Assembly (NCBI GenBank): GCA_043803945.1
Contig: JAZDJN010000021.1
Coordinates: 1-63,259, forward strand
Source: a bacterium
Lineage (GTDB): Bacteria > Bacteroidota > Ignavibacteria > UBA10030
Length of the DNA stretch: 63,259 nt
Direction of reading: 5' to 3'
Translations under genes and position numbers: made by a program
Part shown: positions 58,780 through 60,944 of the stretch, piece by piece
Position numbering within the stretch: the stretch's first letter is position 1
How the letters are laid out: the number at the start of each line of letters is the position of its first letter
The notes under the pieces: generated by a model
Told to the model about the DNA's origin: nothing
The model's database searches: none
The model's input: only the letters and a program-made list of their open reading frames with translations

Positions 58780-58840
58780 GTTGAGTAGAAGTCCGTCTTT
58801 TACCTGGAAACTTGAACGAAAAATCCAACCACGAAGGACA

Positions 58841-60774
58841 GTAGAGTAGAGAGAGCGTTCATACAAACCCGCTCTCCCCCTCGTCAAACCGTACGTGCAG
58901 TTTTCCCGCATACGGCTTTCCCTGTAACCTTCATCTAATGCTTTCACAGTTAGGTCGCCGGATGAAACACCAATGGGTCGATAAGCCCATAGTTATTTAC
59001 CAGTAAGGTAAATGCCTGTTTGCGATACAGGCGTGTCTTCCGCTGACTCTTTCGATTAAAATATCGGGGCAATCGTTCCCTGAGATACCAGTTCAGTTTT
59101 CGTCTGGCTATCGCGGTATAGCTCACTCCTTGTATCTCGAAGTAATTCAGCCATCCTCGAAGTATCCAGTTGAGTTCCTTTACCAGCTCTTTCGGTGGAT
59201 AGTGTCCCATGCGCTTCAACGACAGATTGATATTCTGTCGCATTCGCTTACAGGCTTTATCGCTGGGCTTGATGTGCCAGAAGCGTTTTGTTCCATCAAA
59301 GATGCTTCGATCATACCGTATCGTGAATCCCAGAAAGTGAAAAGATATCTTTCGAGCATCGATGCATCTGCTTTTCTTTTCATTGATTCGTAATTCCATC
59401 CGGTTCAGTATCTCGTGCACTTTGGTGATAATTGCCTCTGTCAGCGTTCGCCCCATTAACACGAAATCATCTGCATATCGTACTATGCGTATACCCGCTT
59501 TCGCAAATATTCCCTTGAGGTTGGTTACTATACGGTCAAGTAGATGCAAGTAGATGTTTGCAAGCAGTGGGGATATCACTCCTCCTTGAGGAGTTCCCAT
59601 CGTGCTCGTTCTACCTCCTGTATAGCGTCCGTTCTCATACACCGGAGCTTTTAGCCATTTCTTGATTAACTCCAGTATCCGAGGGTCACTTATCCGCAGT
59701 GCCAGTGTCTTCATCAGCTTATCATGCGGTATCGTGTCAAAATATTTGCTCAGGTCTGCATCATAAACCTCGGTATATCCTGTTTGGAGGTATTCCTTGA
59801 TTTTTATGATGGCATCTTGCGCTGATTTCTTCGGGCGAAATCCATACGAACTATCCTCAAAATCTGCCTCAAATATCGGTTCTATCACCAGCTTACACGC
59901 CATTTGTGCCACCCTGTCCTTTACGGTGGGTATGCCTAATGGTCGCTGCTCTCCGTTCGGCTTTGGAATATAAATCCTTCTCACCGCACTTGGCTTGTAT
60001 GTTTTCGTTCGCAGTTCTTCCTTGAGCCCTGTAAGAAACTGTTCTACGCCTTCTTGCTCAATTGCCGCAAAGTCCTGCCCGTCTATTCCCGGACTCCCTC
60101 CTTGACTTTTCACCCGTTGCCAGGATTCTCTCAAGATGTAATCCAGAAATACTTTGTCATACAATACATAGAACCGTCGTCGTTTATCCTGCTTGGCGCT
60201 TAGATAGAGTTTCCTCTGTAACATTTGCACTCGTTCCCGATTGGTCATATCCTTGCGTTTCTTTCCGCTCGGATTTACCAACCGTTCAACTTGTTCCTGA
60301 GTACTGCTGTCTTGTTCCTCAATTCTGTCCATGTCCTGTCCATTGAAAACTTGTTTACAGTAATGCCCCTTCGCTCCTGACGGTTTTACCTTTCCGCCTA
60401 TCGTCACTACTATGGGCATATCCGACTCCCGCTCCTGTTCTCGCCGCAAACAGTGCTGGGGTCTCCCACGTTCATGCGCTACCTTCTCTGAACACGCAAC
60501 GATATCTTACCCCGAAAAGTCCTTACCGTGCTGTCTGTCGTTGCTTCCGGTAAGATTGCAGGTTTCACCATCTTCGACAGGCTGACCACTTTTATTCGCG
60601 TAACGAGGCTTAACTACCGCAGCTTATTCAGAACGCTCGCCGTGAACTTAGTACGACGTGTTCCCACGTCTTACCTCACGGTGGCTTCGACTTGAACGAC
60701 AAATTTCGCCGTATGGTTCTTTCATCCATATAGGTATTTTGTTATGTTGTTGCTACGCACGCCTCGTGGCGTAC
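58841..60774 (-). mobile_element. Group II intron, apparently complete (~1.93 kb)
   Basis: 5' end GUACGCCACGAGGCG; DV AGCCGUAUGCGGGAAAACUGCACGUACGGUUU; DVI ending CUACUCUAC; EBS1 candidate CUAAG (60647-60651) in a stem-loop complementary to exon CUUAG; internal RT ORF. Confidence 0.92.
58950..60332 (-). CDS. ltrA: Group II intron reverse transcriptase/maturase, no endonuclease domain
   Basis: PGIDG, RPLGIPTVKDR, SYGFRP, DADLSKYFD, GTPQGGVISPLLANIYL, RYADD, FLGF, domain X LRGWLNYF; start is 60332 or 60248. Confidence 0.95.
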   Translation of the reverse strand: MDRIEEQDSSTQEQVERLVNPSGKKRKDMTNRERVQMLQRKLYLSAKQDKRRRFYVLYDKVFLDYILRESWQRVKSQGGSPGIDGQDFAAIEQEGVEQFLTGLKEELRTKTYKPSAVRRIYIPKPNGEQRPLGIPTVKDRVAQMACKLVIEPIFEADFEDSSYGFRPKKSAQDAIIKIKEYLQTGYTEVYDADLSKYFDTIPHDKLMKTLALRISDPRILELIKKWLKAPVYENGRYTGGRTSTMGTPQGGVISPLLANIYLHLLDRIVTNLKGIFAKAGIRIVRYADDFVLMGRTLTEAIITKVHEILNRMELRINEKKSRCIDARKISFHFLGFTIRYDRSIFDGTKRFWHIKPSDKACKRMRQNINLSLKRMGHYPPKELVKELNWILRGWLNYFEIQGVSYTAIARRKLNWYLRERLPRYFNRKSQRKTRLYRKQAFTLLVNNYGLIDPLVFHPAT

Positions 60775-60944
60775 CTAAGGACGCAAAAGAAAACAGACTA
60801 ATAGAAAATTAAATTAATTCAACAGATTTTCCTTTGCATCCTTGGCGAACTTTGCGGTTTGATTTTAATCTTAACTTTTCGGCCAGGTCTCCAGGAGTAC
60901 TTCACAATGAAGTTCACCGATCACATCACTCAATGGAGGATCGT

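Follow-up and report, generated by a model that had tools for sequence, protein, structure and literature searches.

Among group II introns, the endonuclease is absent from classes C, D, E and F, of which D, E and F are of the IIB type (PMC4424553). IIC introns have a short first exon-binding site (EBS1), no EBS2 and a shortened domain V (DV), and they insert just 3' of a stem-loop (PMC1702495, PMC3753933). RmInt1 of Sinorhizobium meliloti, a class D intron of subgroup IIB3, recognises its target through EBS1, EBS2 and EBS3 and spreads by homing into a harmless multicopy element, ISRm2011-2 (PMC1802570, PMC8914252). IIE and IIF introns are set apart from other IIB introns by a DV loop of 5 nt and by two peculiarities of DId3, namely an additional bulge loop and a stem-loop with alpha' at its tip; they carry covarying EBS1 and EBS2, and their RNA amounts to 450-700 nt without the intron-encoded protein (IEP) (PMC3753933). 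In the IIF intron Ge.ur.I1-1 of Geobacter uraniireducens, motifs resembling intron-binding sites (IBSs), AUUCG and CGUGU, are reiterated 9 and 19 nt upstream, where the intron can splice at alternative 5' sites (Nagy et al. 2013, PMC3753933). The subject here is a complete group II intron in contig JAZDJN010000021.1 (assembly GCA_043803945.1) of a bacterium of the Ignavibacteria (UBA10030); the whole contig, 63,259 nt, is called the window below and is contig C21 of a genome of 5.54 Mb in 118 contigs. The intron splits the arm of a palindromic repeat, and its site was most probably (about 0.8) chosen by ordinary EBS/IBS base pairing to a motif reiterated in that repeat, not by recognition of a DNA hairpin.

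The intron resembles Ge.ur.I1-1 and the IIE/IIF introns in its IIB-like RNA (about 630 nt once the open reading frame, ORF, is set aside), its alpha' on the DId3 tip, its 5-nt DV loop and its IEP without an endonuclease; as in those introns, EBS1 and EBS2 both lie in DId, and IBS2 is directly followed by IBS1 in the exon (PMC3753933). A periodic 5' exon, as in Ge.ur.I1-1, is found here and in relatives such as L016 and L020. Unlike Ge.ur.I1-1, the window intron starts with GUACG and not GUGYG, and it inserts at TCCTTNGTG units that belong to a species-specific repeat, whereas the Ge.ur.I1-1 exon is not described as a dispersed repeat in the main text of its report, where the word 'repeat' occurs 0 times (PMC3753933). 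The likeness to RmInt1 lies in an IEP without endonuclease, in recognition through three exon-binding sites and in spread by homing into a multicopy, harmless element. The IEP is of a different class, however, and RmInt1 homes to an insertion sequence, whereas the target here is a short, periodic and palindromic repeat. We know of no multi-register targets for RmInt1. With IIC introns the window intron shares the lack of an endonuclease and an association with intergenic inverted repeats; unlike them, it has an EBS2, a full-length DV with an AGC triad, and insertions within a repeat arm at variable register. Class E IIB fragments next to attC-like structures in a Halorhodospira cluster of attC sites lacking integron-integrases (CALIN) are likewise non-IIC, endonuclease-less and located beside folded repeats, and structure has been suggested there as an aid to targeting (Sonbol & Siam 2021, PMC7923331). 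Those fragments are 5'-truncated, whereas here the full intron, its exon-binding sites and several junctions would explain the site by pairing.

The intron and the two pieces of the repeat that it splits are placed as follows.

58841-60774, minus strand: complete group II intron of 1934 nt, found by its Rfam matches, with boundaries from five other copy ends and empty paralogous repeats.
60775-60897, minus strand: larger piece of the split repeat (the whole left arm, the loop and the first part of the right arm; positions 5-128 of the hidden Markov model, HMM, of the repeat family), matched by nhmmer.
58800-58840, minus strand: remainder of the right arm (HMM positions 129-169), matched by the same model.

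Further copies of the intron end contigs elsewhere in the assembly (C9 and C5 each carry a 5' end; C66, C99 and C1 each carry a 3' end), and the genome holds at least four copies, that of the window included. Similarity of these copies to the window begins exactly at GTACGCC (60774) and stops exactly at ...CTCTAC (58841), and an unoccupied paralogous repeat on C87 (328080-327905) is continuous across the junction, which together define the intron as 58841-60774. A GTGCG 13 nt downstream (60761) was considered as the 5' splice site and rejected; three copies match from GTACG on, and the empty C87 repeat fits 60774 only. No orthologous empty allele was found in 30 related genomes with a 641-nt flank as query, and this genome is the only one of its genus. 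An earlier interpretation made from the letters of the window alone (below, the sequence-only reading) had called for empty alleles as a check; the unoccupied C87 repeat is a paralogous one.

The copies agree with each other far better than their surroundings do. There are 0 mismatches across 120-138 intron bases per end (5' ends of the window, C9 and C5; 3' ends of the window, C66, C99 and C1), and the C9 match that covers both exon and intron start is 86.8% identical, with every difference in the exon. Since the intron ends are identical while the flanking repeats diverge, the intron moved by itself. It is probably active or recently active.

The same repeat family is found at all three 5' junctions that can be seen and at at least three of the four visible 3' junctions, in line with the homing to a repeat family that had been proposed earlier; the family model fails to recognise the C66 3' junction. 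The insertion follows HMM position 128 in the window and position 137, 9 nt further, in C9, C99 and C1. Each insertion is preceded by TCCTT[AT]G and followed by TG. Insertions thus occur in two registers, both after TCCTTNG and before TG, which argues that position follows sequence and not hairpin geometry. A single entry of the intron, followed by mobilisation or duplication of the intron-bearing repeat, would also place every visible 5' junction and three of four 3' junctions in one family that is similar to miniature inverted-repeat transposable elements (MITEs) and has terminal inverted repeats. Such passive hitch-hiking is highly improbable: the intron ends show no mismatch while the flanking repeats are more than 10% different and belong to different sub-variants, the insertion points are 9 nt apart, and the C66 3' junction goes unrecognised by the family model.

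For the placing of the exon-binding sites, 78 loci encoding relatives of the reverse transcriptase (RT; 47-77% amino acid identity) were gathered, their intron ends were located by nhmmer and domain I was aligned; the covariation draws on 36 related introns. The relatives come chiefly from metagenome-assembled genomes (MAGs) of Bacteroidota and Ignavibacteriota, and also from Geobacter, Scalindua, Spirochaetota and others. On the Rfam structure, the DId region of 29 sequences is paired in 93.7% of cells (31-46% in slid-partner controls), and 18 of its 27 pairs have changed on both sides. The sites, with their partners in the exons, are listed here.

60571-60576, minus strand: EBS1, CGAAGA, within the 8-nt loop that caps the first of the hairpins at the DId3 three-way junction; identified by the RF02005 loop and by covariation with IBS1.
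60595-60601, minus strand: EBS2, ACGCGAA, part of the DId3 5' internal loop (UUAC-NNN-AA), single-stranded in the RF02005 alignment.
60507, minus strand: EBS3, the A after GGGGUA in the coordination-loop region; identified by covariation with the first base of the 3' exon.
60781-60787, minus strand: IBS2, TTTGCGT, exon positions -13 to -7, 7/7 paired with EBS2.
60775-60780, minus strand: IBS1, CCTTAG, exon positions -6 to -1, 4/6 paired with EBS1 (-2 and -6 are mismatched).
58840, minus strand: IBS3, the T with which the 3' exon begins, paired with the A of EBS3.

EBS1 covaries with the exons. Over 36 sites, 191 of 216 EBS1-IBS1 positions are paired, whereas permuted sets average 143 and never exceed 162 (0/10000 permutations reach the observed value), and the result holds on 30 distinct introns (160/180, again 0/10000). 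Matched pairs include CGGAUU-AAUUCG, CGGAGU-ACUCCG, CAAAGG-CCUUUG and CAGAUU-AAUCUG. The centre nucleotide of EBS2 follows the exon: ACAC is matched by GTG in 16 of 19 cases, ACGC by GCG in seven of nine (both exceptions being G-U wobbles) and ACUC by GAG in the single case. One relative (L033) has an 8-bp EBS2-IBS2 pairing, GACUCAAA/UUUGAGUC, and another (L068) a matching AAAUA/UAUUU pair. EBS3 and IBS3, read as the base after GGRGUA and the first base of the 3' exon, are compatible in 25 of 25 cases (A-T in 19, G-C in 5, G-T in 1). Pairing at the three 5' junctions in the genome is as follows.

Window site: EBS2-IBS2 7/7, EBS1-IBS1 4/6.
C5 site: EBS2-IBS2 7/7, EBS1-IBS1 6/6 (13/13), by hand tally.
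C9 site: EBS2-IBS2 6/7, EBS1-IBS1 5/6, by hand tally.

According to the favoured reading, EBS2 (ACGCGAA) and EBS1 (CGAAGA) would pair with an unbroken stretch of 13 bases in the 5' exon, for which TTTGYGT-TCTTTG is the optimum, and the A of EBS3 would pair with the T that opens the 3' exon. The resulting 14-nt target corresponds to two successive units of the 9-nt periodic motif (..TCCTTNGTG..) that builds the repeat arms. Since the target consists of successive arm units and the repeat is present at about 87 loci, the repeat would offer the intron a large supply of near-cognate places to home to, intergenic and harmless, in more than one register. The intron has spread into at least four such sites, and its window copy occupies a sub-optimal register (IBS1 4/6, IBS2 7/7), in keeping with what retrotransposition into a near-cognate site should produce. 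Reverse splicing in vivo presumably uses these pairings, and cDNA synthesis may be primed at replication forks as in other endonuclease-less introns such as RmInt1 (PMC8914252). When the genome is scanned for a T at +1 combined with 12 or more of the 13 possible pairs, 70 sites are found, of which 26 lie inside repeat loci that occupy 0.25% of the genome, a roughly 150-fold enrichment of predicted targets. Of the predicted sites outside these loci, several lie in comparable periodic runs not recognised by the HMM.

A number of observations weigh against site choice by pairing. IBS1 of the window is weak, with one of its two mismatches (-2) beside the splice site. The interiors of the other copies are unassembled, and EBS1 is visible in the window copy alone. 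Across the relatives, neither the longest EBS2-IBS2 duplex (4.64 with the intron's own exon, 4.48 with foreign exons) nor the EBS2 count at fixed register (3.05 own, 2.88 cross) separates own from foreign exons; only the centre-nucleotide table does. The sites of the closest relative, L001 and L002, score 0/7 and 1/7 at the fixed EBS2 register despite 14 nt of common exon. EBS2-IBS2 is reported to be dispensable for in vitro self-splicing of one IIE and one IIF intron (PMC3753933). Half of the relatives' sites (15/30) are significantly structured, and some of these are perfect long hairpins (z = -10.7 for L036), so that a helping role of structure in targeting is possible.

In a hairpin model, the ribonucleoprotein (RNP) would recognise the folded repeat as an extruded single-stranded DNA (ssDNA) hairpin, in the manner of IIC introns at terminators or attC sites, and so offset weak pairing. 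The window's 4/6 IBS1 and a protein without endonuclease speak for such a model, and the rejoined 172-nt element does fold as one long imperfect hairpin (-23.8 kcal/mol, z = -3.3; DNA parameters, 200 mononucleotide shuffles); upstream structure has been suggested as a targeting aid for the truncated class E IIB introns in a CALIN (PMC7923331). When the relatives' rejoined sites were folded (90 nt per side, DNA parameters, 60 shuffles each), 15 of 30 reached z <= -2. The other 15 did not, among them the site of the closest relative, L001 (z = -0.08), and the rejoined window site taken with just 90 nt per side gives z = -1.8. In addition, EBS2-IBS2 pairs 7/7 at the window site, EBS1 and EBS3 covary with the exons, and the two insertion registers lie 9 nt apart in the arm. 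IIC/attC targets presumably have their IBS just 3' of the stem. The target here lies within the stem, where folding would hide the IBS and compete with the EBS. The hallmarks of IIC introns are also absent, and the hairpin model is improbable.

It was this model that the sequence-only reading had favoured, likening the repeat to attC. Extrusion and hairpin recognition find no support, and the two registers follow sequence. The folding of homologous sites proposed as a check came out evenly divided, in favour at the structured half and against at the unstructured half. That reading had also accounted for specificity without EBS2-IBS2 and had named this pairing as evidence that would speak against it; the pairing exists at 7/7 in the window, with EBS2 in a single-stranded loop. 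Its description of the intron fared better: the RT does lack an endonuclease (Pfam finds RVT_1 and GIIM only), DV is standard and full length in the RF00029 alignment with an AGC triad, and the lineage is non-IIC, the IIC hallmarks being absent.

In another account, sequence reads the site while structure or replication gates access: palindromes would be preferentially single-stranded at replication forks, with the IBS open to an endonuclease-less RNP. The intron-sense GC skew is positive on five of the six contigs that carry copy ends and -0.003 on the sixth, which fits insertion at the lagging-strand template, although this evidence is weak because the contigs are short and several form pairs that are opposite ends of a single copy. 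RmInt1 reportedly uses ssDNA at the lagging-strand template (PMC8914252). Against gating, nothing sets the repeat apart from other lagging-strand template DNA, and perfect predicted sites stand empty both in and outside repeats (for example C58:39208 and C27:77841). Gated access is a tentative possibility and, on balance, doubtful.

Removal of the intron restores an imperfect, MITE-like palindrome of about 165 bp. Three rounds of nhmmer, seeded on the empty C87 repeat, gave 178 strand-hits that merge into 87 loci and 14,032 bp, or 0.25% of the genome. These results bear out the earlier view of an intron in the arm of a dispersed palindromic repeat; both half-arms quoted for it are present, and their rejoining upon excision gives the hairpin described above (z = -3.3). 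The ends of the repeat are terminal inverted repeats, CTAGAAAC.TGG.CGAAAAGT, and its arms consist of 9-nt units, CAAAGGACA / TGTCCTTTG in one subfamily and CACAGAG / CTCTGTG in the other. The family was found in none of 30 related genomes (0/30) and is best taken as specific to this genome. Examples of this repeat superfamily lie at C87:327905-328080, C117:27589-27760, C9:14123-14273 and C10:70725-70905, with arm units CAAAGGACA or CACAGAGNN. Repeat copies are often adjacent or nested, and some hold an inserted GC-rich palindrome, CCCCGCCTGCC ... GGCGGGCAGG.

Within the window, 35990-36190 and 61157-61372 hold GC-rich palindromes (for example GGCAGGC..GCC / GGCGAGCAGGCGGG) that adjoin 9-nt periodic runs ending in GTGGTTA/GCGGTT. 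The family HMM does not pick up these two palindromes, which look like a different family that shares the periodic grammar of the arms. A resemblance to the split repeat, in part a loose one, had been claimed for several places in the window, and it is indeed loose: 28925-28952, 36130-36160, 50259 and 61357 carry 9-nt ..YYGKG.. runs ending in GTGGTT/GCGGTT but fall outside the family HMM (E <= 1e-3). The split repeat lies between convergent genes, a DUF4097 'toastrack' gene at 57379-58779 (plus strand) and a SpoIIE-family phosphatase gene at 61446-62591 (minus strand). Its 58800-58840 piece is directly past the stop codon of the DUF4097 gene. The intron is co-oriented with the phosphatase gene, and its transcription by read-through is possible.

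The RNA core and the protein of the intron place it among known kinds. Three further features are listed here.

58841-58920, minus strand: DV, with an AGC triad and a 5-nt GAAAA loop, and DVI, with a bulged A 7 nt from the 3' end; from the RF00029 alignment and DV folds of the window and its relatives, the DVI bulge being read off the sequence.
60521-60555, minus strand: alpha' stem-loop with stem UCUUACCG/CGGUAAGG and the alpha' motif (AACGACA) in its loop; from helix covariation and complementarity to alpha.
58950-60449, minus strand: ORF of the intron-encoded RT/maturase in domain IV, with YADD present; translation probably begins at the ATG at 60248.

Rfam RF00029 (DV-DVI) matches 58920-58841 on the minus strand with 54.2 bits (gathering threshold 40, model positions 1-77), and a more permissive scan of the region finds RF02005 (group-II-D1D4-6) at 60722-60500 on the minus strand with 62.6 bits (gathering threshold 49). 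DV is full length with its AGC triad, and its GAAAA loop recurs in nearly all DV sequences among the 78 loci. The intron begins with GUACG and ends with ..CUAC. The 3' terminus ..UAC fits the consensus AY; the 5' GUACG is one base away from the consensus GUGYG, as it is in the closest relatives, while other relatives have GUGCG. In Pfam the protein matches RVT_1 (6.3e-39, 134 bits) and GIIM (6.9e-08, 32.8 bits), with no HNH/En domain and no family beyond these two, and its ORF terminates about 25 residues past GIIM. A second RT-like frame lies elsewhere in the genome (C7:27379-28197), in an open frame of 694 amino acids with 36% identity over residues 27-309.

Contigs from four sequencing runs contain fragments of related introns and one RNA-library contig identical over 60330-60581; they hold no joints at intron ends and no variant information at EBS1, and are uninformative on splicing and copy variants. 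The identical contig comes from a groundwater metatranscriptome (run X1) and covers 252 bases of the intron, from domains I-IV, with DNA carry-over possible.

In the alpha' stem (helix 5), all eight pairs have changed on both sides (8/8), and 95.2% of cells pair. The complementarity of alpha and alpha' spans 9 nt in the window and averages 7.28 in own pairs versus 6.07 in cross pairs. Two candidates for EBS1 in this stem-loop were rejected. GUAAGGA (intron position 249, about 60527-60521) pairs 6/7 with the window exon; it is the 3' strand of the alpha' stem, where 8/8 pairs are compensatory, and it does not track IBS1 in the relatives. The variable part of the alpha' loop has no consistent complementarity to the exons. 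The roughly 5 bp of EBS1-IBS1 pairing in the sequence-only reading is therefore half right: IBS1 is truly weak at 4/6, but the segment likely meant, GUAAGGA, is a covarying stem and not EBS1.

Adjacent IBS2 and IBS1 are paired by EBS2 and EBS1, and the 3' exon is read by EBS3 and not by delta-delta', both of which are IIB traits. The alpha' on the DId3 stem-loop, the 5-nt DV loop and an IEP without a D/En region are hallmarks of IIE/IIF. The IIC traits are missing, DV being full length with AGC, an EBS2 loop being present and insertion occurring inside an arm at two registers. By these features the element is identified as a IIB-type intron of the IIE/IIF kind. It is probably of class F, the class whose IEP clade contains Ge.ur.I1, So.us.I2 and Pe.th.I2; two hints toward class F are an exon type like that of Ge.ur.I1-1 and the presence of Geobacter and anammox MAGs among the relatives.

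The habit of inserting into periodic repeats extends to these relatives. Across phyla, relatives also lie in 9-10-nt periodic ...YYGTG... repeats. A link to 9-10-nt periodicity is seen in 20 of 46 5' exons: the last 8 nt recur (at least 6/8) at an upstream distance of 9 nt in 13 of them and of 10 nt in 7, whereas the same recurrence at other offsets (4-15 nt) is seen in 0-2 sites. In L016 (OW818689.1), two related introns stand in tandem at 1975-3912 and 3932-5869 with 19 nt of periodic AATTCGTGT units between them, an arrangement best read as insertion into successive registers of one repeat run. A Saprospiraceae MAG (OZ252053.1) carries at least 12 copies of one related intron on a single chromosome (L004-L012, L035, L063 and L065), nearly all after ..AATCCGTG/AATCTGTG.. 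periodic units that often follow a small TTGCC...GGCAA hairpin. The closest relative of the window intron (77% amino acid identity, genome G004) has a different EBS1 and EBS2 and occupies other sites. Because this closest relative differs in EBS and sites and the repeat family is genome-specific, the EBS appear to have been re-tuned to local repeats.

These observations could be drawn together in a broader proposal, which as a whole is rather unlikely, of a cross-phylum, IIF-type 'repeat rider' lineage. Its EBS2 core (UUACAC/UUACGC) and EBS1 would be matched to 9-10-nt units punctuated by GTG/GCG and re-tuned in each host, and such units would build palindromic repeats similar to repetitive extragenic palindromes (REPs) or MITEs in many genomes of Bacteroidota, Ignavibacteriota and others. 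Overlapping homing registers would then account for the insertions found here in tandem or shifted by 9 nt and for the published alternative 5' splice sites, with fold-back or ssDNA at the fork giving the endonuclease-less RNP access. Within the literature that was searched, no earlier account came up of a group II intron residing in a REP, a MITE or a periodic repeat.

The element is best described as an IIE/IIF-type intron of ordinary mechanism that would use a multicopy periodic repeat as a safe haven, a target habit that is possibly general. To our knowledge, the mobility of introns of the IIE/IIF kind has not been characterised. The present case provides a concrete EBS/IBS map for such an intron and corrects the tempting analogy to IIC/attC hairpin targeting. 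It indicates how an endonuclease-less intron may multiply harmlessly by tuning its exon-binding sites to a motif found in dozens of intergenic copies. If this held throughout the lineage, the link to 9-10-nt repeats would explain the alternative splice sites of Ge.ur.I1-1, and poorly described periodic repeats would be safe havens for introns.

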